NCBI GenBank assembly: GCA_963777955.1
Contig: CAVZSQ010000019.1
Location: forward strand, 64,001 to 128,000
Direction of reading: 5' to 3'
DNA length: 64,000 nucleotides
From: Calditrichia bacterium
GTDB lineage: Bacteria; Calditrichota; Calditrichia; JAJRVZ01
Shown: in pieces, positions 2,515 to 17,981 of the stretch
How the letters are laid out: every line of letters begins with the position of its first letter
How positions within the stretch are numbered: position 1 is the stretch's first letter
Position numbers and translations under genes: made by a program
Notes under the pieces: model-generated
The model's database searches: none
What the model was told of the DNA's origin: nothing
The model's input: only the letters and a program-made list of their open reading frames with translations

Positions 2515-2792
2515 ATGATCTCAACTAAAAATATAAAGGAAATATCGATGATCCTGGCCAGAGATCAGAGATGCCGGTCTGATCGAAGAGTTTTTTAAGG
2601 AAATCATGACCAAATCTGAATTAAAAAACCTGGCGTCGCAGATGGGATATTGTAAAATTGCTGGTCCGGGGAACCACCCAGCGAAAAATCGCCAGTGATC
2701 TGCATTTGAGTTTATGCAATATCACCCGGGGTTCGAAAGAATTACATAAAAAAAATTCGGCAATAAAAAAAATAATTCAATTAACTACATAA
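2515..2792 (+). CDS. trpR: Trp repressor family (TrpR/YerC-YecD) regulator; two +1 frameshifts
   Basis: Not in the ORF track. Rejoined reading: MISTKNIKEISMILA..IRDAGLIEEFFKEIMTKSELKNLAS.WDIVKLLVRGTTQRKIASDLHLSLCNITRGSKELHKKNSAIKKIIQLTT*. This has the TrpR signature 'T..E...L..RW....L..G..QR.IA..L..S...ITRGS'. Confidence 0.85.
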
Positions 2793-2818
2793 AAAAGAAT
2801 TTGTATAACTAGGAGAAA

Positions 2819-4195
2819 ATGATGCAGGTAAAAGTTCTGTTGGACGAAAAAGAAATTCCGAGACAGTGGTATAATCTGGCCGCTGATTTCAAACATCCCA
2901 TGCAGCCACCGCTGGGACCGAACGGTAAACCCATTTCGCCGGATATGCTGGCCCCTGTTTTTCCCATGAATCTGATCGAGCAGGAAGTCAGCCAGAAAAG
3001 ATGGATCGATATCCCCGAGGAAATTCTTGAAATATTGTACCGCTGGCGCCCTTCCCCCTTGCACCGGGCCGTCTACCTGGAAAAAGCACTGGGTACACCT
3101 GCAAAAATATATTATAAAAACGAAAGCCTTTCCCCGCCGGGAAGTCATAAGCCGAATACGGCCGTGGCCCAGGCCTGGTACAATAAACAATTCGGCATTA
3201 AAAAAATGACCACCGAAACCGGTGCGGGTCAATGGGGCAGCGCCCTGGCCTTTGCCTGTTCCCTGCTGGGACTGGAATGCAAAGTATACATGGTCCGGAT
3301 CAGTTTTGACCAGAAACCGTTCAGAAAAATGATGATGCAAGTCTGGGGCGCCACCTGTATCGCCAGTCCGAGCGACACCACCCAGGCCGGACGCAATATT
3401 CTGAAAAAGATGCCGGATACGCCGGGCAGTCTGGGCATCGCCATCAGCGAAGCCATCGAGGCGGCGGTTACCGATCCCAAAGGGGAAACCCGCTACTCGC
3501 TGGGCAGTGTGCTCAATCACGTGCTGCTGCATCAGACCATCATCGGCCTGGAAGCAAAAAAACAGTTGGCCAAGGCTGGTGAAAAAAAGGTTGACGTGGT
3601 CATCGGCTGTGCCGGCGGCGGCAGTAATTTTGCCGGACTGGCTTTCCCGTTTGTCAACGATAAAATCAACGGTGCAAAAATAGACATCATCCCGGTAGAA
3701 CCAACATCCTGCCCGACTATGACCCGTGCGCCTTTTGTTTATGACCATGGCGATACCGCCAAGATGACACCGCTGCTGCCAATGCATTCGCTGGGACATG
3801 ATTTCATTCCCCCCCCCATTCATGCCGGCGGTCTGCGTTATCACGGTATCGCTCCGCTGATCAGCCATGCCATCAATGAGGGACTGATAACTCCCCAGGC
3901 CATCGATCAACTGGAGTGCTACGAATCTGCCGTGACCTTCGCGAAGACCGAAGGGATCATTCCGGCTCCCGAGACCAGCCATGCCATCGCCGTAGCTATC
4001 CGCGAAGCGAAAAAGGCCAAAGAAGAAGGAAAAGAGAAGGTGATCCTGTTTAATTTCAGCGGACATGGTTTGATGGATCTAACCGGATATGAAAAATATT
4101 TTAGCAATCAGTTAACGAATTACGCGCTGCCGGAAGCCGAAATGAAGAAGTCACTCAAGGCTTTGGAAGGTTTACCATTACCCCAAAAGGCCTAG
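2819..4195 (+). CDS. trpB2: Tryptophan synthase beta chain-like PLP enzyme (TrpB2 type)
   Basis: [11 protein letters not shown] lysine, [49 protein letters not shown]. TrpB2-type N-terminus, and no trpA nearby. Confidence 0.95.
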
Positions 4196-4655: not shown

Positions 4656-6128
4656 CTACTTTAACAAAACCATTTTTAAAGATTCTTTAAAATTATTTGC
4701 CTTAAGTGCACAAATATATATCCCGCTGGAAACCCTGGTTCCTCTAAAATCTGTTCCTGACCACTGGATAGATTTAAATCCGGGTGCTTGTTTCGTATTG
4801 ACCAGGGTATTGACCAGCCTGCCCGCTGTATCATATATACTCAGATTAACATCCGTTGCTTTATTCAACACATAAGATATTGTAGTAACCGGATTAAAGG
4901 GATTGGGATAGTTCTGGAATAATCGAAAATCTGCAATCTGATAATTCTGATCGTCCGGCAGTGACGTGATTAATCCGTTGGCATCTGTTTTTACCAGATA
5001 GATATCGGGCCTTGATCCGGCCCCAAAACTATGAGTATATCCTGTTAAAACAAAACCACCATCGTCGGTTAGTTCCATATCATCAGCCATTTCCTGATTT
5101 GTACCTCCATAAGTTCTGGTCCACAAGGTATCACCGTCGCCATCGGTCTTCACCAGGTAAAAATCAAAAAAGCCGGCACCATAGGTATCTGTATATCCGG
5201 AAAGAGCATATCCACCATCTGCTGTTGTTTGGATTGTAAAAGCTCTTTCATCGGCAGTTCCACCATAAGTTTTCATCCACAATGAATCACCCTGTTCATC
5301 CGTTTTCATCAACAGAAAGTCCGACGCACCCGCGCCAAAACTGCTGGTATATCCCCCTATTATGTAGCCGCCTTCCGGCAGCTCTTGAACAGAAAAAGCA
5401 ATTTCATAACTGGCCCAGTTATATCTTTTTGTCCAGAGTGTATCGCCGGTACTATCCGTTTTTACCAGATACATATACCCTGTTCCATCGCCATAAGTAT
5501 AGTCATCTCCATATCCGGCCATAATATAACCGCTGTCGGCCGTTTGCTGAACCGATTGAGCACGTAAATCTACCCTGGCAGTGCAACCGTAATTTTTACT
5601 CCAGCTCAGCTCGCCGTTCGCAGTTGTTTTAGCCAGGTAGTAACAGGCATAATAATCCTCATCGGCATACCCGCAGATGATATAGCCGCCGTCGAAGGTT
5701 GGCTTAATATCCTCGACATACTCCGCTTCGTCACCACCGATTTTTTTAGTCCACAGGGTATCGCCCTGGTTATCTATTTTCACCAGGTAGATAGCCGATC
5801 TTGCCGGTCCGGTACTGATCACCGCACCACCGGCCAGAAGATATCCATCACCGGTTTCCAGGATATTGTTGGCCCATTGTGACCAGGTGCTGCCGAAAGT
5901 CTTTGTCCAGGCAGTATCACCCAGCTCATCTGTTTTGACTAAATAAATATGCATTGAACCGCCGTCGCCAATCCGGCTATATCCGGCGACCAGATAACCC
6001 TGATCTTGCGTTTGGATCACCGCGTTTGGTTCTTCGGTCTCGACAGTACCGTATGTTTTTTCAAAATTAACCTGAGCCATTACATTCATTACTGAAAGCA
6101 TGATGATCATAATGCCAGAGATTTTCAT
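4656..6128 (-). CDS. Secreted beta-propeller repeat protein with C-terminal sorting (T9SS-type/FlgD-like) domain
   Basis: Signal peptide, seven repeats of 'T.DGGY...GY......YLVKTD..GDTLW.KTYG', and a C-terminal 'LFQNYPNPFNP...KMVLLK'. Confidence 0.85.
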   Translation of the reverse strand: MKISGIMIIMLSVMNVMAQVNFEKTYGTVETEEPNAVIQTQDQGYLVAGYSRIGDGGSMHIYLVKTDELGDTAWTKTFGSTWSQWANNILETGDGYLLAGGAVISTGPARSAIYLVKIDNQGDTLWTKKIGGDEAEYVEDIKPTFDGGYIICGYADEDYYACYYLAKTTANGELSWSKNYGCTARVDLRAQSVQQTADSGYIMAGYGDDYTYGDGTGYMYLVKTDSTGDTLWTKRYNWASYEIAFSVQELPEGGYIIGGYTSSFGAGASDFLLMKTDEQGDSLWMKTYGGTADERAFTIQTTADGGYALSGYTDTYGAGFFDFYLVKTDGDGDTLWTRTYGGTNQEMADDMELTDDGGFVLTGYTHSFGAGSRPDIYLVKTDANGLITSLPDDQNYQIADFRLFQNYPNPFNPVTTISYVLNKATDVNLSIYDTAGRLVNTLVNTKQAPGFKSIQWSGTDFRGTRVSSGIYICALKANNFKESLKMVLLK

Positions 6129-6507
6129 GAGCTTTTCTCCCTTTTAAATTTCAGATGTGCATGAATCTTTTCAGACCAAGACAGATTATCCGATAATAAA
6201 GTATGATTGGCTTAATTTAAAAAATCAAATATATTTAATTTGTATTTGCCGTCACAAGTCATATTATTTTCAAATCTTCTTTACAAAATTCATCACTATC
6301 ACATTCAGAGCAAAGATGATTTGGATCCCGCAGGTCATTCTGCACAGGAATCAGCGGACTGATCCTCATTATTATACTCAAATGGGATTAATATTTAACA
6401 ATTTTGTGTTTATATAATCTATTTATAACAATATTATATACGTTTAATTTTTATTATGTAGGATATGTTATTTAAACCTGAATTACCTTAAAACACAGGT
6501 CACATTG

Positions 6508-8823
6508 ATGTTTAAGCCCATCACCAATCCCTATATTGTCGGGAATCCGATTAAAACAAAAAAAATGTTTTACGGCCGCGAGGACGACTTCGAATTCATC
6601 CGTAAAAAACTGGAAAGTGGCAAAAAAAGTTACATCATCGTACTCTCCGGTGAACGGCGCAGCGGTAAAACCTCGATCCTCTTTCAGATTCTTAATGGCC
6701 AGTTAGGAGACAATTTCATCCCGATCCTGATCGACATGCAGACTATGGCCGGACTAAAAAATGAGGTTGAGTTTTTCGAAAAGTTTGCCCAGGAAACCAT
6801 ACGTTACCTGGACGACCGGTTTGATCTGCATAAATACAACTTTCATTCCGAGCAGGAGAGCCCCTACAAGGTTTTTTCCCGATTGCTTAATGACATGCAT
6901 ACAAACTACCCCTACAAAAATAAACTATTCCTGATCGACGAGTATGAACTGATCGAAATGAAAAGCAGCGAAGGTAGTTTAAGTCCAAGTTTTGTACCAT
7001 TTTTATCCGGGATTCTGGAGAGTGAACGCCGGATCTCGTTTATCTTTACCGGATCAAAAACATTGTCCGAGCGGGATACCACTTACTGGCAAAATTTATT
7101 CGGCAAATCCCTGTTTCGTAATGTCAGTTTTCTATCACAACAGGACACTATTCGATTGATCACCCAACCTGTGGATGGTCAAATCACCTTTTCTGATAAA
7201 GTGCTGGAATCAATATATCGTCTTACCTCAGGCCAGCCTTTCTACACCCAAATCGTAGGTCAGCACATTGTCGATTTTGCAAATGAACATCAAAAAACAC
7301 ATATCAGCACCGCTGAGCTGGACCATATCGTTAATGACATTCTGGAAAATCCCCTGCCGCAGATGATCTATTTCTGGAATAATCTTCCGGAAAGTCAGAA
7401 ACTGCTGCTCTCTCTGCTGGCAGAATTATTAGAGGATGAAAATTCTTATCTGACTGCTTCGGAGGTTGATAAAAAATCCCGTAAAAAGAAATTTGGCGTC
7501 AATCTGGACATCCAGCTGATCAATACCATTCTGGAAACATTGTACCACCATAAATATGTAGCCAAATCTGATAACAGTTATTCTTTCCAGATAGATTTGA
7601 TGCGTCAGTGGATCAAGCGGGATCACTCAATCTGGCGTGTATTGAAGGAAGTGAACATCGAATCCATCATCAGGTCAGAACGTATTGCTTCACCCTCCAT
7701 GGATATTAATCAGGCAGCTCCGGCACCAGGTATAAAGAAACGCTGGACCTGGTCAATCGCTGCTGCAGTGATCATTGTTTCGGTAGTCACAGTATGGTTA
7801 TTGTTCGACCGGACAGACGGTTCTTCTATTCAGAATCAACCTCCGGCAACCAATCCGGCCGGGATCTTGTCCGGGAACGGAAATAAATCAGACCTGGATA
7901 AACCAGTACCGGTAAAAGAAGTGATCCAGGATGAGAAAACCAACGAAAAATCAAGACCGACCATCCCAAACTCATCTGAAAAAAACAGGTCGAGACCTTC
8001 AACAGTGAAACAAAATCTGACCAAAGTGACACAACCGACCACAAACGACCTGGCACTGGACAAACTGGAATCCGTCCGGATGCTGATGCTGCAAAAAAAA
8101 GTTGAATCTGAAAATAGCGGAGCAGCTGCTCTGGCTGCCGGCACATATACTAAAGGACTTGCTGCCGAAACAGAAGCTACAAATTTCGCTGCGCGTGATG
8201 ATTATGAGAGTGCCCTGGAAAAATACCGGCAGGCTCAGGATATTTTCGCTCAGGCAGCACTGGAAAGTAAATCGGCGCTGCAACAGGAAAAAACACAAAT
8301 TACCGGTTTGATTCAACAAATTGATAAAATTCAATCCGAGCTTAAGCAGCAGCACCGTTCCCTGTCTGAATACCGCAGTGCTGAATCGTTAAGAAACAAG
8401 GGAACTGAACAATCCGCACAGGGTGACTTTACGCTGGCCCATAAAAGTTACAGCGAAGCTCTCAGCTTATATAAAGAAACCATCCATATACGAGCGGAGG
8501 ACAACCAGAAGATCCAGACTGCTGTTCAGGGGTATGCCCGCGCCCTGGAATCTAAAAACATTGCCGGTTCCAATTATATCATCAGCAGTTACAAAAAAGA
8601 ATTGGAAAGTGAATGGAAACCATTTTTTAATGTAGCTCAGGACATAAAAATTACTCTGAGTACTCACGAGATTGAATTCAGCAATACCACGGCAAGTTTG
8701 CTTGCCGATGCATTGTTACAGTACCGCGGCGCCGGTGGTTCAGGAAATAAAAATGTCTGGAAATTCGAGTTGGTTAAAACAGGATCAGACTGGATTATCT
8801 CAAAAATAAGTGAAGCTAATTAA
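6508..8823 (+). CDS. STAND-like P-loop ATPase + TM helix + periplasmic helical/TPR-like region + NTF2/SnoaL-like C-terminal domain
   Basis: NPYIVGNPI...FYGRE, Walker A GERRSGKTS, Walker B LFLIDEYE, 'TSGQPFYTQ' GxP motif and winged helix. TM 'WTWSIAAAVIIVSVVTVWLLF', a P/T/S-rich linker, and a C-terminal 'YARALESKNI...WKFELVKTGSDWIISKI'. Confidence 0.85.
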   Translation: MFKPITNPYIVGNPIKTKKMFYGREDDFEFIRKKLESGKKSYIIVLSGERRSGKTSILFQILNGQLGDNFIPILIDMQTMAGLKNEVEFFEKFAQETIRYLDDRFDLHKYNFHSEQESPYKVFSRLLNDMHTNYPYKNKLFLIDEYELIEMKSSEGSLSPSFVPFLSGILESERRISFIFTGSKTLSERDTTYWQNLFGKSLFRNVSFLSQQDTIRLITQPVDGQITFSDKVLESIYRLTSGQPFYTQIVGQHIVDFANEHQKTHISTAELDHIVNDILENPLPQMIYFWNNLPESQKLLLSLLAELLEDENSYLTASEVDKKSRKKKFGVNLDIQLINTILETLYHHKYVAKSDNSYSFQIDLMRQWIKRDHSIWRVLKEVNIESIIRSERIASPSMDINQAAPAPGIKKRWTWSIAAAVIIVSVVTVWLLFDRTDGSSIQNQPPATNPAGILSGNGNKSDLDKPVPVKEVIQDEKTNEKSRPTIPNSSEKNRSRPSTVKQNLTKVTQPTTNDLALDKLESVRMLMLQKKVESENSGAAALAAGTYTKGLAAETEATNFAARDDYESALEKYRQAQDIFAQAALESKSALQQEKTQITGLIQQIDKIQSELKQQHRSLSEYRSAESLRNKGTEQSAQGDFTLAHKSYSEALSLYKETIHIRAEDNQKIQTAVQGYARALESKNIAGSNYIISSYKKELESEWKPFFNVAQDIKITLSTHEIEFSNTTASLLADALLQYRGAGGSGNKNVWKFELVKTGSDWIISKISEAN

Positions 8824-8842
8824 TATCTATTAAGGGGGTTTT

Positions 8843-10144
8843 ATGTTTCAGCGGATTTTTTTAGGGTGTTTTATTATTTTACTGCTGGCCACTGATAGTA
8901 ATGGTCAGACCTTGCAACAACAAATAAATAATATGTTCGGCGAAGTATTGGCTCTAAACCTTAGTCCCGGACAGCATGGAGAACATTTCCTGCCGGTCAA
9001 AGTGGCCAGCAGTCAGGCATTAATAAACTCTTTAAATACATTTATCGGCACGAGCGTAGCATCTTTTCCACTAAGTTCATCCACGGCCGGTGTCACCTTT
9101 GATTTCGGTACCGGGAAACCTGTTCAAACTTCCACCAGTTTTGGTCCTATTTTTGCTGAACGTGCTCAGACTATCGGTGGTAAACGGATTAGTATGGGAC
9201 TGAATTTTACCTACATTGTTTTCAGCAGAATCCGTGGTATTTCTCTCGAAGATCTACGGCTCACTTTTACTCATCAGGATGTGGGTCTGCCGGGCCTGGG
9301 TGACAGTCCCAATGAATTTGACACAATGGATTTTTATATGCGCATGGATATTGCAGCAGCTGTTATGGCTGTGTATTTTACTTATGGAATAACCGACCGC
9401 CTTGATGTCGGCCTGGCCGTTCCGTTCACCAATATCCAGCTGAAGACCTCCCCTTTCGCGCAAATTAACAGTTTCACCTGGGTGAGTAATGACAGTGCCA
9501 ACCACTATTTCGGCGGGACCCAGACCGAACCGATCCTCACCAAATATCCGACTCCAATCAATGATGATGCCACAGGTATTGGAGATATTGCTATCCGGGC
9601 AAAATACAATTTTATCAGAGAGCGGTCCGTTGATTTTGCCGCTATGCTGGAGTACCGGATGGATACGGGAGACGCCGCAAATTTTTTAGGTGCAGGATTT
9701 TCAGCATTACGTGCTTCGGTAATAGGATCAAAAATTTCGGGTGATTTTGCACCCCACCTGAATCTTTCCTACTTGAAAAAATTTACCGATTTGGATCGTG
9801 ATGAATTTGAATTTATTGCCGGCTATGACCAGAAAATCTCCGGATGGCTGACACTGGCGATCGATGTTGTGGGACGATTTGACCTTGGCGATCCGATTGA
9901 GGGTATGCAATTCCCCACCAGTGTGGACATTAAACGGACAGTGGGCAGTACGGAATATGTCAATACTGTTTCGTTGACCAATCTGCCGAATTATGATCAT
10001 GATAATACGATCGATGCTGCCTTCGGTTTCAAGTTGAAATTAAAAGAGGCTCTGCTGGTCATGAGTAACATATTTGTACCCTTGAATCATACCGGCTTAA
10101 GAGCAGATATTATTCCGACGATGGGCCTGGAATTCAGTTTTTAA
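8843..10144 (+). CDS. Outer-membrane beta-barrel protein (MetA-pathway/'transporter'-like)
   Basis: Signal peptide, 'FGPIFAERAQTIG', 'YGITDRLDVGLAVPF', 'ATGIGDIAIRAKY', and a C-terminal BAM-type signal 'GLEFSF'. Confidence 0.8.
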   Translation: MFQRIFLGCFIILLLATDSNGQTLQQQINNMFGEVLALNLSPGQHGEHFLPVKVASSQALINSLNTFIGTSVASFPLSSSTAGVTFDFGTGKPVQTSTSFGPIFAERAQTIGGKRISMGLNFTYIVFSRIRGISLEDLRLTFTHQDVGLPGLGDSPNEFDTMDFYMRMDIAAAVMAVYFTYGITDRLDVGLAVPFTNIQLKTSPFAQINSFTWVSNDSANHYFGGTQTEPILTKYPTPINDDATGIGDIAIRAKYNFIRERSVDFAAMLEYRMDTGDAANFLGAGFSALRASVIGSKISGDFAPHLNLSYLKKFTDLDRDEFEFIAGYDQKISGWLTLAIDVVGRFDLGDPIEGMQFPTSVDIKRTVGSTEYVNTVSLTNLPNYDHDNTIDAAFGFKLKLKEALLVMSNIFVPLNHTGLRADIIPTMGLEFSF

Positions 10145-10212
10145 CACGATAATCGAAGAAAATATGAGGCTGAAACTTAGGCCTGCTGAAAATTAAATAA
10201 AAGATATAGGCG

Positions 10213-12855
10213 ATGATCGGAACCACAATAGCACACTATAAGATTTTAACTAAACTTGGTCAGGGTGGAATGGGACATGTATATCTGGCCGAGGATCTGC
10301 AGCTTGGACGGCGTGTTGCCATCAAGTTACTGGCACCGGAATTTGCTCTGGATCCTGGTATTAAGGAGAGATTCAAGCAGGAGGCCCAGGCCGTGGCAGC
10401 GCTCAGTCATGCCAATATCGTTACGATCTATGAATTTGGAGATTTTAATAATAATCCATACATCGTGATGGAATATATAGATGGAAAGTCCCTGCGTGAA
10501 AAACTGGCAAAAACAAAACTTCCCTGGCCGGAGGCTATCACCATAATCCGGCAGATCTGTGAAGGATTGAATAAATCTCATCGTACCGGCATCATCCACC
10601 GTGATTTAAAACCGGAGAATATTCTGTTTGACTCAGACGGAGGAGTAAAGATATTGGATTTTGGTCTGGCCAAATTCCGGAATCATCAGAACATCACCCA
10701 GAAATCCATGCGTCTGGGCACGATCAATTACATGTCTCCGGAACAATTACGGGGCAAGGAGATAGATGTACAATCCGATATTTTCAGTCTGGGCGTGATT
10801 TTGTATGAAATGCTCTGCGGTCAACTGCCCTTCACTGCTGAGTATGAGGCGTCCTTGATCTATGCCATTCTCCATGAGCAGCCCCGGCCAATAAAAGAGT
10901 ATGCTCCCGGCCTGCCGCCGGCCCTGCAGAAAATTATCGAGATGGCGCTGGCCAAGGATAAAACATCACGGTACAGATCGGTTAACGAATTATCCCTGGA
11001 TCTGGCTGCAATCCAGGACCACCCAGGCAGCGCTAAACCTGAATCTGAAATAGGTGATCCGGGCAGTGTTGAACAACTGCTGGAACATCGCCAGCAGATA
11101 GATAAACTGATCGAGTCAAAATATAAAAAATCGATAGTCATCCTGATCAGCGATATCGTCGGATCCACCGAGTTTTTCGAACAACGGGGCGATATTGAAG
11201 GCCGGGCAATGGTCAGCCGGCATCACCGGCAAATGTTCCCTTTGATTCAGAATTATCAGGGAGAGATAATCAAAACTATGGGCGACAGTATTATGGCATC
11301 TTTTCATGATGTGGCAGCTGCCACCCGCTGCGCCTGCGAAATGCAAATCAAACTGGCTGCCGAGAACAAAAAACTTCCTCCTGATGACCGGATTAAAATC
11401 AGGATTGCCTTACATTATGGTATGGCTGTAATTGAAGAGGGTGATGTTTACGGCGATGCGGTAAATGTGGCAGCGCGAATCGAAAAACTGACGGACGGTG
11501 ACCAGATTATGATCTCACAGTCCCTGGTGGATGCCCTGGGGCATGATACGGATCAGACGGTGGTACATGCCGGGAACGCCAGTGTAAAAGGCAAAACCGA
11601 AAAAATCGCCTTGTACAGACTGCGCTGGTTCGATGAAGAAATAATAAAACCTATCACCGAGCATGACAGTCAATTGAAAGATCTGCCCACACCGCCGGCA
11701 CTGACCGTGAGTTTCGGGGCAAATATAACCGCCCCTTACAGGATGAAGATTCCCCCGCAGACCAGCGGGGAAACTCTGGACCGGCAATTGCAAAATCCCT
11801 ATATGAATCGCGTTATGATTCAGGACAGCGCAGAATTTTATGGCCGCCGCACTGAAATTGAAAAGATCTACTCACGTATCGGGTCTTCCCGACCGCAATC
11901 CATATCACTGGTGGGTGAACGACGTATCGGCAAATCTTCCCTGCTCAATTTCATTTACCAGCCGTTCAACCGTAGCAAGTACCTGAAAAATCCGGACGAG
12001 TATATTTTTATCTTTATCGATTTTCAGGAACGCCGCGGCATCGGCATCAAAGAATTTTTTACTATTATATTCCAGGCTCTCCTGGATGCTTTCGACGGCA
12101 ACCTGGAACTGAATCTCGAACCGGATTATGAAGGCTTTAAAAAGGTAATCTCAACCTTCGACGAACAGAAACTTAAATTAATCATGTTGTTTGATGAATT
12201 CGAGCTGGTCACAAAAAACGAAAACTTTGATACCGAATTCTATTCTTTCTGCCGTTCGATTGCCAACAATTATAACGTAGCCTATCTCGTTTCTTCCGGC
12301 CGCAATCTGCAGACATTGTGTCACAGCAAACAAATATCGGATTCTCCGTTTTTTAATATTTTTTCCAATATAACCCTGGGTCAATTTACTGTGGACGAAG
12401 CAAAAAACCTGATTTGTAAGCCAGCCGAGAAATTAAACTATTCATTGAGTTCATATGTTGATTTTGTACTGGATCTTGCCGGATTTTATCCATTTTTCAT
12501 TCAAATGGCCTGTGCCGCCCTCTATGAACATATAAAAAAGGGAGAGCAGCACAGCAAATCCTTTCTGGAAAAAGTAAAAGATGATTTCCTTGATGAAGCC
12601 AAGGTTCATTTTCAGCAGATTTGGGCCACTGCTGATGATGAGCAGCGCGAAGTTTTTCTGAACCTGAGTCTGGGCAAAAAAATTCAGCCTGAACAGGAAT
12701 ATCTGCTCAAGATTCTGGAGAAAGAAGGATATTTAAAACCGGGTAAAAAACGTCCTGAAATATTTTCTTCTCTGTTTAAAAACTTCATCCTGAACAGATT
12801 CGGAACTGGACGAAAATCTTCCTCCCGGATCTGGTCTTTCATAAAAAGTGCCTGA
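10213..12855 (+). CDS. Ser/Thr protein kinase - class III adenylate cyclase - STAND-like ATPase fusion (cytoplasmic)
   Basis: Kinase motifs GQGGMG, VAIK, HRDLKPEN, DFG, YMSPE. Cyclase motifs ISDIVGST, IKTMGDS, GDVYGDAVNVAARIE. ATPase motifs NPY...FYGRR, GERRIGKSS, LFDEFE, AGFYPFFIQ. No TM segment. Confidence 0.9.
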   Translation: MIGTTIAHYKILTKLGQGGMGHVYLAEDLQLGRRVAIKLLAPEFALDPGIKERFKQEAQAVAALSHANIVTIYEFGDFNNNPYIVMEYIDGKSLREKLAKTKLPWPEAITIIRQICEGLNKSHRTGIIHRDLKPENILFDSDGGVKILDFGLAKFRNHQNITQKSMRLGTINYMSPEQLRGKEIDVQSDIFSLGVILYEMLCGQLPFTAEYEASLIYAILHEQPRPIKEYAPGLPPALQKIIEMALAKDKTSRYRSVNELSLDLAAIQDHPGSAKPESEIGDPGSVEQLLEHRQQIDKLIESKYKKSIVILISDIVGSTEFFEQRGDIEGRAMVSRHHRQMFPLIQNYQGEIIKTMGDSIMASFHDVAAATRCACEMQIKLAAENKKLPPDDRIKIRIALHYGMAVIEEGDVYGDAVNVAARIEKLTDGDQIMISQSLVDALGHDTDQTVVHAGNASVKGKTEKIALYRLRWFDEEIIKPITEHDSQLKDLPTPPALTVSFGANITAPYRMKIPPQTSGETLDRQLQNPYMNRVMIQDSAEFYGRRTEIEKIYSRIGSSRPQSISLVGERRIGKSSLLNFIYQPFNRSKYLKNPDEYIFIFIDFQERRGIGIKEFFTIIFQALLDAFDGNLELNLEPDYEGFKKVISTFDEQKLKLIMLFDEFELVTKNENFDTEFYSFCRSIANNYNVAYLVSSGRNLQTLCHSKQISDSPFFNIFSNITLGQFTVDEAKNLICKPAEKLNYSLSSYVDFVLDLAGFYPFFIQMACAALYEHIKKGEQHSKSFLEKVKDDFLDEAKVHFQQIWATADDEQREVFLNLSLGKKIQPEQEYLLKILEKEGYLKPGKKRPEIFSSLFKNFILNRFGTGRKSSSRIWSFIKSA

Positions 12856-12858
12856 TGC

Positions 12859-14127
12859 TTATCGTTTAGCTCTGATTATCCAATCTTCCACATCATTTCT
12901 TTCACGGGGAATTTGTTCGGACAGAACGCGGTAACCGGAGCCGGTAACCAGAACATCATCTTCGATCCTCACGCCGAATTTTTTATCGGGAAAATAGATA
13001 CCAGGTTCGACTGTTACTACCATACCCGGTTTCAATTTCATACCATAGTCGGCAACATCATGTACATCCAGACCAAGATGGTGACAGGTACCGTGGATCA
13101 GGGCATCGATATATCCGGCTTCACGAATTACAGTTCGTACCCTGTCCTCGACGTCCTTGGTAGTTATACCCGGCTTGATAATTCCAGTTGCAGATTTCAG
13201 GGCCTGCAGCACAACATCGTAGATATGGGCTTGTTCCGGATTAAATTTTCCATCGACAGGGAAAGTGCGGGTGATGTCGGCGGCATAATGCTCCCATTCT
13301 GCTCCGACATCGACAAGCAGCAGCTGGCCTGGTTCCACTGAACGGTCGCGCTTCTGATAGTGCAGAATGGTCGATTCTGCTCCGGTACCTATGATCGGAT
13401 CGAAGGACATGTGCTGCGCTCCCTGGCGCTTGAACGAGTTTTCCAGAATTCCGTCCAACTGATATTCCTTCACTCCGGGACGGACCCCGGCCAGCATATC
13501 TGTTATACCGAGGTAGGTTATCTGTACGGCCTTTTCGATGGCAGAAATCTCGGCCGCAGACTTGACCATACGCATAGTTTCAATCTGCTGCGATGAATTT
13601 TTGAGGTATGTCCCGGGTACACGAACCATTATTTTTTGATAAAGATCCAGATCGGGTGGTAGATACCCTGCAGGACCAACCAGTGACGAAATGAGCTGCA
13701 GGATGGATGTATGTTTCAGATTTGCGATTAAAACTTCATCGAGTTCACCCGTGCGCATAATATCTTCAAATCCAAGTGCTTTTCTAAGTGAATCACTTAA
13801 AGACGGACGGCGACCTATCCAGCGCTCAAGTTCAATATCACGGGGAGGCAGGAATAAAACCTGGCGGATCTGCTCCTGCGGGGCCAGCAGCAGTATAGCT
13901 CCCCGTTCATCCACACCCGTCAGGTACCAGAAATTCCCATCCGCCCGGTAACCGGTCTCAGTCTCAATTCCCTGCGAGTAGAGCACGGCGATCCCCTCCC
14001 CCAGCGATTTCAACAGAGCTTCGCGGCGTTCGATATAAGTTTTAGGGAATTGAATGTTCTTTTCTTCTTTTTCCTGGGCCAGGACAAAGGCAGGAAGTAT
14101 TAATAAAACCATGAATATTCGCATCAT
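12859..14127 (-). CDS. pepP: Exported Xaa-Pro aminopeptidase (M24B)
   Basis: AMP_N region 'NFWYLTGVDE', metal ligands DVGAE..YAADITRT, HHLGLDVHD, TVEPGIY, GVRIEDDV, and an N-terminal signal peptide. Confidence 0.9.
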   Translation of the reverse strand: MMRIFMVLLILPAFVLAQEKEEKNIQFPKTYIERREALLKSLGEGIAVLYSQGIETETGYRADGNFWYLTGVDERGAILLLAPQEQIRQVLFLPPRDIELERWIGRRPSLSDSLRKALGFEDIMRTGELDEVLIANLKHTSILQLISSLVGPAGYLPPDLDLYQKIMVRVPGTYLKNSSQQIETMRMVKSAAEISAIEKAVQITYLGITDMLAGVRPGVKEYQLDGILENSFKRQGAQHMSFDPIIGTGAESTILHYQKRDRSVEPGQLLLVDVGAEWEHYAADITRTFPVDGKFNPEQAHIYDVVLQALKSATGIIKPGITTKDVEDRVRTVIREAGYIDALIHGTCHHLGLDVHDVADYGMKLKPGMVVTVEPGIYFPDKKFGVRIEDDVLVTGSGYRVLSEQIPRERNDVEDWIIRAKR

Positions 14128-15602: not shown

Positions 15603-17981
15603 ATGTGTAAACGAATCATTTTCCTGATATACCTGCTGTTTTTGTCTGCCGGCTGTGTACGGCCAGTCGGAGTTGATTTTTGATGACACTCAACTGGCCA
15701 CCATACAGATCTTCATCGATCCGGATTCACTGGCTCTTATTTATGCACCGGGCAATGAAGAAAATGACCATGAATACCCGGCCCGTTTTATCTTCCGGAA
15801 TGCTGCCGTGCATGATTCGGTTGAAAATATCGGTTTCCGCCTGAGAGGAAATACATCACGCTATGCAGCCAAGAAATCATTTAAAGTTTCGTTTAATACT
15901 TTTGAGCGCGGACGTAAATTTTACCGACTGGAAAAACTGAATCTGAACGGAGAACATAACGATCCCTCCGTGATCCGCGCTAAATTGTGCTGGGATCTGT
16001 TTAAAACCATGCAAGTTCCCTCGTCCCGCGCCTTCCACACCAGGTTTATATTAACGGCGATTATTATGGTCTGTATATTGCAGTCGAACATGTCGATGAA
16101 AACTTCGTCAGGGAAAATTTCGCAGATGACAGCGGGAATCTCTATAAATGCCTGTGGCCGGCGGACCTGACCTATCTTGGCACCACACCGAATGTTTACA
16201 AATTGATGAACGGCAACAGGCGCGTATATGACCTGATTACCAATGAGGCAAGCGGACGATTATACCGATCTGGAGAGCCCTGATCTATCTCCTGCAATTC
16301 AGTTCAACCGAGGATTTTCCGGAATTGATTCAGCAATATTTCAATGTCGATCTGTTCCTGCGCGCCCTGGCAGTTGATGTCGCTGTCAGCAGCTGGGACA
16401 ACTACTGGTTCTTAAAAAATAATTACTATCTGTATCACAATCCCGCCAGCGGCCAGTTTGAATTCATACCGTATGACTACGATAATACCTTCGGCATCTG
16501 GTGGGACGGAATTCTAGCGGGAGTTGACTGGGGAAACAGGTATATTTACAGCTGGGGACATCCCACCGAAGACCGGCCATTAGTGGAAAGAATCATGGCG
16601 GTAGCCTGATTTTAAAAACCGCTTCAGTTATTACCTGAAACACCTGCTGGACCATGGTTTTAATCCCGATACACTTTTTCCCAGGATAGATGCCATTCAT
16701 GATATGATATTATCGGCTGCCCATGACGATCCGTACCGGCCGCTGGACTATGGTTTTACCGTAGATGATTTTCACAAATCCTATGATCAGGCCCTGGGCG
16801 CCCATGTCACCTATGGTTTAAAGCCGTACGTAACAACCAGAAGAAATTCCGCTCTGTCGCAATTGATACTTAAGAATATGGCTCCCGTCCTATCAGACCT
16901 GGAACATTTTCCCATGACACCGCAGACCAGTGATCCTATTTCGTTTAAAGTAACTATTCTGGATGACCATTACGTCCAGGCTGTACAACTATTCTGTTAT
17001 ATCGATAATTCCTGGCAACTCATCGATCTGCTTGATGATGGAATCCATGACGATGGACAGGCCGGAGATAATATTTACGGCAACATTTTACCGGCATTGA
17101 ATCAATCTACAAGTATTTCCTATTATATATCTGCCCGGGATGACTCAAATGCGGTCTCAACCTTACCGGCCGGTGCTCCGCAAAATGTCAACGAAATCAA
17201 AATCGGTTATGCGCAGGTAGCACTTTATATAAATGAATTCCTGACCAGTAATATTACAGATAGTGTCGATGAATCCGGCGATCATGAAGACTGGATCGAA
17301 ATTTATAACGGCGGTTCAGGCAATATTTCCCTGAACGGTTTGTACCTGAGCGACAACTTCAATAATCCTGCCAAATGGGCTTTGCCTGATACAGTTCTTT
17401 TACCGGGAGAATTTTTATTAGTCTGGGCCGATGAAGAAGGGAGCGAAGGAAGTCTACACGCCAATTTCAAACTGGACAAAGACGGGGAAAGGATTGGTAT
17501 ATTCAACAGCGACTTCGCCGGCCGGGCGCCGATAGATACCCTTTCTTTCAATCTGCAAACCGCGGATGTGTCCTACGGCCGTTCTACCGATGGCAGCGTC
17601 CCCTGGGAATTTTTCAATAATACCACTCCCGGTCAATCAAACACCACAACCGGGATTAACCCTGCTGTGCAGAATTTAGTTAATCATTATTTTGTGCTGC
17701 AGCAAAATTATCCCAATCCGTTCAATCCTTCCACCACGATTCGCATTGAGATATTTGTGCCAGGGAGCCTGCGGATAAATATCTGCGATCTTAACGGAAA
17801 AACCGTCAAACAATTGCAACAATTCTATGGTTCACCGGGATATTACGAATGGATCTGGGATGGTCATAATAATGAAGGTAAACAGGTCGCTTCGGGTTTG
17901 TATTTTTTAAACGCGGTGCTGCGAGCAGGTAATCAAACGATCAGCACCTGCCCAGTTATGAAGATCGTACTATTAAGGTAA
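15603..17981 (+). CDS. CotH kinase-family protein + lamin-tail domain + C-terminal sorting domain; at least 4 frameshifts
   Basis: Joined ORFs 15655-16170, 16325-16609 and 16704-17981. CotH motifs 'RLRGNTSR..KKSFK', 'KLNLN', 'WDNY...NNYYLY', 'IPYDYDNTFG'; LTD 'INEFL...DWIEIYN...LYLSD'; 'QNYPNPFNP'. Signal peptide from ATG 15603. Confidence 0.85.

Follow-up and report, generated by a model that had tools for sequence, protein, structure and literature searches.

We describe three adjacent genes in a stretch of 64,000 nucleotides (the window) from a Calditrichia bacterium and propose, at a probability of roughly 60 %, that together they form one trans-envelope signalling cassette. Gene 1 codes for a membrane-anchored receptor ATPase ending in an NTF2-like domain, gene 2 for an outer-membrane beta-barrel and gene 3 for a soluble protein that joins a kinase, a nucleotide cyclase and an ATPase of the nSTAND2 family. 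Two pairings recur in other genomes, that of the barrel with the NTF2-like domain and that of the gene-1-type ATPase with nSTAND2, and a complex prediction places the two ATPases of the window against each other. The window lies on contig 19 (CAVZSQ010000019.1, positions 64,001 to 128,000) of a 4.24 Mb genome in 27 contigs, which is 91.8 % complete.

All three genes are on the + strand, and the open reading frame (ORF) coordinates confirmed the co-oriented arrangement with gaps of 19 and 68 bp given in a preliminary description of this DNA. That description placed the start of gene 1 at 6508, which is an ATG one codon into an ORF that begins TTG-ATG, with the TTG at 6505. The features are listed below with the evidence for each in brackets.

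6505..8823, + strand: gene 1, membrane-anchored receptor ATPase, 772 amino acids (aa) from TTG (ORF; Pfam AAA_14/ATPase_2)
6505..7689, + strand: gene 1 cytoplasmic ATPase module, residues 1–395 (BLASTP to gene 3, invariant columns, predicted interface)
7744..7806, + strand: gene 1 single transmembrane helix, residues 414–434 (hydropathy; KKR ahead of it)
8047..8421, + strand: gene 1 periplasmic helical stalk, residues 515–639 (long helices in the AlphaFold2 (AF2) model; weak TPR/MIT matches)
8422..8820, + strand: gene 1 NTF2-like domain, about residues 640–772, with the last ~105 residues as conserved core (Foldseek; iterated hidden Markov model (HMM))
8843..10144, + strand: gene 2, FapF/COG4313-like outer-membrane beta-barrel, 433 aa (AF2 and Foldseek)
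10213..12855, + strand: gene 3, soluble kinase-cyclase-nSTAND2 effector, 880 aa (ORF; Pfam)
10237..10974, + strand: gene 3 Hanks-type Ser/Thr kinase domain, residues 9–254 (Pkinase, 193.5 bits)
11116..11616, + strand: gene 3 class III nucleotide cyclase domain, residues 302–468 (Guanylate_cyc, 76.6 bits against a cut-off of 21.9)
11788..12852, + strand: gene 3 nSTAND2 ATPase module, residues ~526–880 (PF20702, homologs, invariant columns, predicted interface)

The three gene products

The N-terminal P-loop module of gene 1 matched Pfam AAA_14 with 36 bits, over the cut-off of 27; ATPase_2 (30.8 bits, cut-off 33.2), AAA_22 and nSTAND3 remained under theirs. It carries the motifs NPYIVGNP, GERRSGKT (Walker A), IDEYE (Walker B) and NPLPQMIYFW, and a probable winged helix closes the module. 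The protein has one hydrophobic segment, at residues 414–434 (Kyte–Doolittle 19-residue maximum 2.43), and the positive-inside rule points to an orientation with the N-terminus in and the C-terminus out. A low-complexity linker leads from the membrane helix to the C-terminal part, in which Pfam gave weak TPR matches, below cut-off, at residues 550–660. The AF2 model of residues 515–772 (m7bf270c6f892) had a predicted local distance difference test score (pLDDT) of 96.4 and consisted of long helices followed by an alpha+beta domain. All the top Foldseek matches of this C-terminus in the PDB were NTF2-like (4l8o, E 3.4e-4; 7sjy, 7o21, 5d9r and 3hx8), and bile-acid dehydratases, the NTF2 sensor of RsgI9, Bd1075 and ARC6 were among the proteins found; no Pfam NTF2/SnoaL family matched the domain. 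Pfam, hydropathy, AF2 and Foldseek together upheld the order of ATPase, transmembrane segment, linker, helical part and NTF2-like domain that the preliminary description had read for gene 1.

Gene 2 starts with a signal-peptide-like N-terminus and ends in EFSF. Its match to Phenol_MetA_deg (PF13557) reached 18.4 bits, under the cut-off of 22, and that of a homolog (locus L011) 20.1 bits. The AF2 model had a pLDDT of 80.7, with residues 78–102 below 50, and its best Foldseek match was the FapF channel (5o65_B, E 2.2e-13; TM-score 0.65–0.70, normalised on the target), followed by a COG4313 channel (4rl8_C, E 3.6e-10) and then by FadL, in agreement with the earlier assignment of gene 2 as an outer-membrane beta-barrel. 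Conservation in the barrel family is strongest at residues ~76–112, overlapping the segment of low AF2 confidence. Gene 2 shares with the FapF and COG4313 (Pput2725) channels, its best structural matches, a barrel with an N-terminal extension. Unlike FapF, it is accompanied by no fap genes and no amyloid secretion operon, and its conserved partner is a receptor that ends in an NTF2-like domain. No Plug, TonB_dep_Rec or FecR match was obtained with Pfam for gene 2 or gene 1; against NCBIfam, none of the three proteins reached the cut-off of any family and gene 2 gave no match at all.

The kinase sequence of gene 3 contains VAIK, HRDLKPEN, DFG and SPE, which we take to be the catalytic Lys, HRD, DFG and APE-like motifs, and candidates picked by eye in the cyclase domain are presumably the metal-binding Asp and the Asn/Arg. 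Residues 559–812 matched Pfam nSTAND2 (PF20702) with 159.5 bits, as compared with a cut-off of 24, and this module carries the motifs GERRIGKSS (Walker A), LFDEFE (Walker B) and SPFFNIF. A Kyte–Doolittle scan found no membrane segment, no hydrophobic window reaching 1.6, and Pfam found no sensor repeats beyond the ATPase. Domain matches and hydropathy thus bear out gene 3 as the soluble kinase-cyclase-ATPase previously described.

The ATPases of gene 1 and gene 3 could be aligned by BLASTP over 326 residues with 23 % identity (E 4e-9), and the motifs from which they had first been taken for paralogs fall within the alignment, which corroborates that view. Although this homology is clear, the gene 1 ATPase gave no match to the Pfam nSTAND2 model. 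Both families keep Walker A and Walker B: G49, R51–K55 and D145–E146 are invariant in 50 gene-1-type sequences, and G568, G573–S576 and D661–E662 in 49 gene-3-type sequences.

Two pairings conserved across genomes

The barrel was present in 6 of 41 related genomes. A wider survey, restricted to one genome per species, gave 249 pattern matches and 217 confirmed relatives, from which 79 loci were kept; these belong to Calditrichota, Zixibacteria, Bacteroidota and, mostly, Gemmatimonadota. In 56 of the 79 loci the barrel had a partner gene whose 3' end lay no more than 700 bp away; the partners were 38 convergent kinase genes, 10 co-oriented upstream kinase genes and 8 co-oriented upstream genes for gene-1-type ATPases. 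Among the other 23 loci, 10 had less than 1.5 kb of DNA on one side and 10 of the remaining 13 had a more distant kinase match. When the last 132 residues of gene 1 were used in a single-sequence phmmer search, the domain was detected in 40 of the 56 partners, each time at the very C-terminal end, and with an iterated HMM an NTF2-like domain of ~105 aa was detected there in 55 of the 56. The one exception (L014) has the NTF2-like domain in another frame. This comparison, made on sequences, shows that barrel and NTF2-like domain belong together.

In a fully scanned locus (L011/L020) the partner is a protein of 772 aa with Pkinase, two PEGA, TPR and the NTF2-like domain, and the barrel gene comes after it. 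Genes for an FHA-domain protein and a GAF-SpoIIE (PP2C) phosphatase flank the receptor-kinase barrel module of L011 (genome G016; 6579–8645 and 12717–13130), so that receptor kinase, barrel, FHA and GAF-PP2C genes are a complete phospho-signalling set. The preliminary description had placed this barrel family beside intact kinase-transmembrane-NTF2 genes in Acidobacteria-like genomes; the association held in 48 of the 79 loci, and none of the 79 came from Acidobacteria. The cassette of the window thus has the same transmembrane helix, stalk, NTF2-like domain and barrel that serve Hanks-type receptor kinases as a sensor module in those 48 loci; unlike in them, its kinase is on a separate, soluble protein and the cytoplasmic part of its receptor is an ATPase. 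Common to 48 receptor kinases in four phyla, the barrel and NTF2-like domain constitute an unstudied candidate link for sensing from outer to inner membrane, and we found no published account of this module in a literature whose coverage was incomplete.

The frame change in L014, which is from the same genus as the window, lies at 5678–6791 and splits the gene 1 homolog before its NTF2-like domain. Other relatives have frame breaks as well (L026, 10016–11292; L018, 6860–8137; L096, 639–1674), which split two barrels and one stand-alone nSTAND2. All of these may be either decay or assembly errors in metagenome-assembled genomes.

The second pairing concerns the two ATPases. A gene for nSTAND2 was found in 6 of the 8 barrel loci with a gene-1-type ATPase, the other two contigs ending 50 and 109 bp past the barrel, and in 0 of the 71 other barrel loci; L096 is a case in which nSTAND2 again accompanies an ATPase-type locus. 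In metagenomes, nSTAND2 was present in 9 of 9 NTF2-type loci with DNA past the barrel (L105, L108–110, L112, L115, L116, L131 and L145), some of which are possibly duplicate assemblies. All three gene types therefore occur together in further loci, as the preliminary description would have it. Within Calditrichota, the gene-1-type ATPase (E ≤1e-20) was found in 12 of 86 genomes, in a single copy each and over 7 of 8 families, and nSTAND2 exceeded its cut-off in 13 of the 86, namely in the same 12 and, marginally (24.3 bits), in G067. Genomes with the gene-1-type ATPase thus had nSTAND2 in 12 of 12 cases, as compared with 1 of 74 for those without.

In 4 of 6 genome loci a stand-alone nSTAND2 gene, 35 % identical to the module of gene 3, stands between barrel and effector. 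It codes for ~355 aa with an intact Walker A GK[ST] and with DD instead of DE in Walker B, and was found in L010 (9568–10635), L016, L017, L018, L026, L105, L108–110, L112 and L116. It is missing from the window and from the congener, which suggests that a three-ATPase assembly was reduced to two in the genus of the window.

Both ATPases belong to much larger families. The gene 1 module had 704 homologs at E ≤1e-3, and among the best 120 of these it is found, at 42–53 % identity over ~95 % of its length, joined across a membrane segment to other extracytoplasmic domains. A metagenome survey with a distant receptor-ATPase as query gave 319 matches, 260 relatives and 79 loci. Thirty sensor parts from metagenome loci were scanned and comprised Reg_prop/Y_Y_Y propellers (12), PEGA (9), FGE-sulfatase (4), TPR only (3) and no Pfam match (2). 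By sequence, then, a large family of receptors with varied sensors has the gene 1 ATPase as its cytoplasmic module. The nSTAND2 module of gene 3 had 876 homologs, which are fused to kinase-cyclase, kinase alone, cyclase alone, SpoIIE/PP2C, CHAT or an RND/SecDF-like region. An nSTAND2 gene was present in 41 of the 79 metagenome loci, co-oriented with the receptor-ATPase in 41 of 41, in 11 of the 16 loci flanked by 5 kb or more on each side and in 33 of the 68 without an NTF2 domain. In two proteins (P0109 and P0117) nSTAND2 and a gene-1-type ATPase form a single chain, and at one locus (L098) a soluble gene-1-type ATPase without transmembrane segment, NTF2 domain or barrel directly precedes a kinase-kinase-cyclase-nSTAND2 gene. 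As judged by this comparison of sequences, the gene-1-type ATPase and the nSTAND2 effector have been shown to belong together.

Some single loci of this family deserve mention. Two of them, L160 and L173, have receptors of the PEGA type together with cyclase effectors. A TonB-dependent receptor gene follows an FGE-sulfatase-type receptor-ATPase gene in L152 (12173–14347), and a FadL/TodX-like barrel gene precedes a TPR-type one in L161 (5276–6415); with barrels of other families beside receptor-ATPases, barrel pairing may recur beyond the variant of the window. In L171 (9332–11076), a propeller-type receptor-ATPase gene is separated from its nSTAND2-kinase gene by genes for an EcoRV endonuclease and a D12 methyltransferase, with a Uma2 gene upstream. 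Two proteins of about 1450 aa (P0178 and P0180) have an nSTAND2 of the gene 3 subfamily fused to an RND/SecDF-type region (PF00873, PF02355), an unexpected effector for a STAND protein.

Predicted docking of the ATPases and the proposed relay

The complex of the two ATPases, which the preliminary description had suggested for modelling, was predicted for gene 1 residues 1–395 and gene 3 residues 520–880, each with an alignment of ~50 relatives, along with three controls. The interaction prediction score from aligned errors (ipSAE) was 0.63 (runs of 0.63, 0.68 and 0.62), as compared with 0.00 for the best of the three controls; the partners had pLDDT values of 81–82 and the contacts agreed by at least 95 % between runs. 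Of 157 solved complexes, 116 attain the mark of 0.63, as do 2 of 215 mismatched pairs; these counts apply only roughly to this pair because it was predicted with our own alignments.

The predicted interface is made up of short invariant motifs. It includes, on the gene 1 side, NPYIVGNP, R51–R52 of the P-loop, D77/Q79, E146 and NPLPQMIY, and on the gene 3 side, R555/R560, Q562–S563, R681, A684–N685, Q700 and SPFFNIF. By hand count, 11 of the 36 interface residues of gene 1 are invariant in its family (R51, R52, D77, Q79, E146 and NPLPQ among them), as compared with 52 of 395 overall, and 14 of the 41 of gene 3 (including R681, A684, N685, Q700 and the SPFFNIF motif), as compared with 49 of 361. 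The models therefore support docking of the gene 1 ATPase on the nSTAND2 module of gene 3.

The predicted docking also bears on the question of whether genes 1 and 3 are co-located but separate in function, gene 1 being a membrane-tethered regulator that acts via its winged helix and gene 3 an autonomous sensor similar to PknK or the mycobacterial cyclase-STAND proteins. Self-contained fusions of this type are known, namely the kinase-STAND and cyclase-STAND fusions of mycobacterial PknK and Rv0386-type proteins, and gene 3 holds all the domains needed for autonomous oligomerisation. Nevertheless, the strict co-occurrence of the two genes among genomes (12/12 versus 1/74), the co-orientation of adjacent pairs in 41 of 41 loci, the single-chain fusions, the pair retained without a sensor in L098, the predicted docking (0.63 versus 0.00 in controls) and the lack of sensor repeats after the ATPase of gene 3 all argue for a joint function, and we regard separate roles as very improbable.

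In the proposed cassette, the NTF2-like domain would read an event at the barrel, either a ligand that the channel delivers or an altered state of the conserved N-terminal segment (~76–112), and the membrane-tethered gene 1 ATPase would then shift its nucleotide or oligomeric state. By analogy with sensor/helper NLR pairs, it may then bind head to tail to the nSTAND2 module of gene 3, with the subunit arrangement of AAA+/STAND rings. Clustering of gene 3 would bring its kinase domains close together for trans-autophosphorylation and would allow its class III cyclase domains to dimerise for catalysis, for which such cyclases need dimers. The expected outputs are protein phosphorylation and cyclic AMP. 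Channels related to the barrel pass hydrophobic molecules or polypeptides, and small hydrophobic ligands are often bound in NTF2 pockets, so that a small-molecule cue or a report on the state of the outer membrane are the obvious candidate signals. A relay from barrel to periplasmic domain to kinase and cyclase through the ATPases had been put forward in the preliminary description; co-occurrence and predicted docking speak for it, and two of the three outcomes that were named there as refuting it did not arise, since the three genes recur together and the ATPases are predicted to interact. Its signal flow, binding and activation remain conjectural.

Several points weigh against the proposed cassette. 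The first is that information could flow from inside out, the state of the ATPase (or, in the more frequent form, of the kinase) being sent outward via stalk and NTF2-like domain to gate a FapF-like channel, with gene 3 regulating gene 1. The nearest structural relatives of the barrel (FapF, COG4313 and FadL) are indeed plugged, gated channels, and its most conserved stretch (residues ~76–112) is poorly placed by AF2, as expected of a segment that requires a partner. On the other hand, other receptor-ATPases carry classical ligand-sensing ectodomains without a barrel, the kinase, cyclase and PP2C domains fused to nSTAND2 are typical outputs, and no substrate or secretion genes lie beside the barrel in the window. 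We consider this reversed direction improbable.

The remaining points concern the inward-signalling cassette itself. The co-occurrence counts (12/12 versus 1/74) overstate independence because the genomes are kin, and they describe a pattern with no statistic attached. The third nSTAND2 in most relatives means that direct contact between gene 1 and gene 3 may not be ancestral. No nSTAND2 was found in 38 of the 79 metagenome loci, many of them on short contigs, and five loci whose flanks extend for 5 kb or more in both directions (L113, L128–130 and L133) have a gene-1-type ATPase with no nSTAND2 nearby. Part of the complex score of 0.63 may mirror known AAA+/STAND ring interfaces, because both chains are paralogous and share a fold that oligomerises. 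Finally, the kinase and cyclase activities of gene 3, and the substrate specificity of the cyclase, are predicted from motifs only.

Beyond the window, the two ATPase families may point to a general class of transmembrane signalling, a tentative proposal to which we give slightly less than even odds. In it, a STAND-like ATPase would be the transmitter of a receptor and would hetero-oligomerise with a paralogous nSTAND2 on interchangeable outputs (kinase, cyclase, PP2C and possibly others), which would make it the membrane-bound equivalent, in bacteria, of sensor/helper NLR pairs; in the variant of the window, the NTF2-like domain would read an outer-membrane channel and the relay would span both membranes. 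The textbook list of bacterial transmembrane signalling comprises two-component systems, chemoreceptors, Hanks kinases, anti-sigma factors and cyclic-nucleotide enzymes. If the proposal is true, there is a further route, from sensor domain and membrane helix to STAND ATPase, paralogous ATPase and output enzyme, which would be common in uncultivated phyla (704 homologs of the gene 1 ATPase module and 876 of that of gene 3) and would be a prokaryotic, non-immune counterpart of paired NLRs. We found no published account of a membrane receptor whose transmitter is a STAND ATPase paired with kinase/cyclase nSTAND2 effectors, in a literature search of incomplete coverage with most subscription journals outside it.

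Origin, related systems and surroundings of the cassette

The preliminary description regarded the cassette as a split receptor kinase, with the kinase of gene 3 detached from a receptor of the kinase-transmembrane-ectodomain type. This was not supported by a kinase tree of 53 rows (unrooted, with four long-branched rows and weak deep forks), in which 8 of 10 gene-3-type kinases formed one clade (98/89). The barrel-linked receptor kinases of Calditrichia (L020 and L022) were located elsewhere (100/99), with other kinases of the genome of the window and across a 94/95 branch, so that the tree does not derive the kinase of gene 3 from them, and we reject a literal split as the probable history. 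Because of this tree, and because the ATPase pair is widespread with other sensors or with none, we favour capture over splitting; on these comparisons, it is most likely that the sensor module of transmembrane helix, stalk, NTF2-like domain and barrel was captured by a pre-existing system of receptor-ATPase and nSTAND2 effector.

In sensor/helper NLR pairs, such as NAIP-NLRC4 and the paired NLRs of plants, a sensing STAND protein nucleates oligomers of a paralogous output STAND protein, and both are cytosolic immune receptors. Unlike in these pairs, the sensor of the window is a single-pass membrane protein that reads the periplasm, the outputs are a kinase and a cyclase, and the hetero-oligomer is putative, the prediction being of a heterodimer. 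As in FecA-FecR-FecI, a barrel in the outer membrane would communicate with the C-terminal, periplasmic domain of an inner-membrane protein with a single pass, which would control a cytoplasmic output, and as in RsgI anti-sigma factors the extracytoplasmic sensor is NTF2-like (RsgI9, 7sjy, being a fold match). In contrast to both, gene 2 has no TonB-dependent match, there are no sigma or anti-sigma parts, and the transmitter is an ATPase pair. The system of genes 1 to 3 resembles NLR pairs and FecA-FecR signalling in its logic and belongs to neither.

Gene 3 by itself is similar to the TOMM kinase/cyclase fusion family TIGR03903, which it matches over residues 32–448 with 159 bits and with which it shares a kinase, a cyclase and a STAND-type ATPase. 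However, this score is far under the equivalog cut-off of 705.75, the ATPase is nSTAND2 and not AAA_16 plus TPR, and gene 3 is without the C-terminal sensor repeats of such fusions, sensing being apparently delegated to gene 1.

Kinases and class III-like cyclases also act as effectors in some defence systems. The cassette might accordingly be a STAND/NLR-like anti-phage system, in which phage adsorption or injection is sensed by the envelope module and answered by the kinase and cyclase as defence effectors. The distribution would suit such a role, being patchy (12 of 86 Calditrichota genomes over 7 of 8 families) with differing genomic contexts; a CHAT domain is present in some relatives (P0243), and restriction-modification genes adjoin or interrupt 2 of 5 scanned loci of the non-NTF2 type (L158 and L171). 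When the three proteins and a stand-alone nSTAND2 were compared with PADLOC, the kinase models PD-T4-6 and mad6 matched gene 3, through the generic kinase domain only, and no system-specific match was obtained for gene 1, gene 2 or the ATPase modules; because the matches were generic kinase-domain ones, no defence system could be assigned. The effectors, moreover, are signalling enzymes (kinase, cyclase and PP2C) and not nucleases, TIR domains or pore-formers, the sensors (Reg_prop/Y_Y_Y, PEGA, FGE-sulfatase and, weakly, dCache_3) are typical of two-component and Hanks-kinase receptors, ordinary receptor kinases use the barrel and NTF2 module in 48 loci, and housekeeping genes flank the cassette in the window.

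The nSTAND2 family itself was introduced in a patchily distributed two-gene operon predicted to be a mobile counter-invader system and read as a conflict system in Proteobacteria (Kaur, Iyer, Burroughs and Aravind, eLife 2021, PMC8195603), a point in favour of defence; this operon is the nearest published system to the cassette. Both of its products are soluble, one of the two STAND modules has eroded NTP motifs and is fused to GT4 or HEPN effectors and TPRs, and the authors predicted a toroidal hetero-multimer. The genes of the window are like that operon in being two genes with STAND-type NTPases of the nSTAND2 branch, in adjacent position, and in their patchy distribution. They differ from it in that both ATPases keep Walker A and B, which argues against defence, in that the effectors of the family are kinase, cyclase or PP2C, in that one ATPase forms the cytoplasmic part of a membrane receptor that has periplasmic sensors, and in that the gene 1 ATPase falls short of the Pfam nSTAND2 model. 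The stand-alone third nSTAND2 of the relatives likewise keeps GK[ST], and has DD in Walker B. On balance, we consider an anti-phage role rather unlikely and retain a signalling cassette as the preferred reading.

In the window, the cassette is flanked by genes for a pyridoxal phosphate enzyme, proteins with type IX secretion system (T9SS) tails and an M24 aminopeptidase. In a tblastn comparison with related loci, these flanks were common only to the genome of the same genus, and in another family the cassette sits between gcvP and an amidohydrolase gene; because flank conservation is confined to the genus, we place the start of the cassette at gene 1 and its end at gene 3. Between 6000 and 13200, 24 promoter-like sites (15.0 ± 3.5 in shuffles) and 9 terminator-like sites (6.7 ± 2.6 in shuffles) were counted, with 0 of either kind in both spacers, in scans that are uninformative for this phylum. 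For positions 6400–12900 no RNA data set containing the sequence was listed, and the best DNA data set contained a fraction of 0.12 of its sequence words. An ORF of 86 aa upstream of gene 1 (6157–6417) had no Pfam match and no tblastn match in 12 related loci, the congener included, and was therefore treated as a non-gene.

Two further observations concern other parts of the window. At 2777–4195, two long ORFs overlap on opposite strands, and the one on the − strand is probably spurious because a family match (PALP) was obtained only for the + strand ORF (2819–4195). At 15655–17981, an ORF of 171 aa matched the start of CotH only (profile positions 2–72 of 322) and is followed by an ORF of 94 aa and by one of 425 aa with a lamin-tail domain (LTD) and a T9SS sorting tail; this region may be one CotH-LTD surface protein interrupted by frame shifts.

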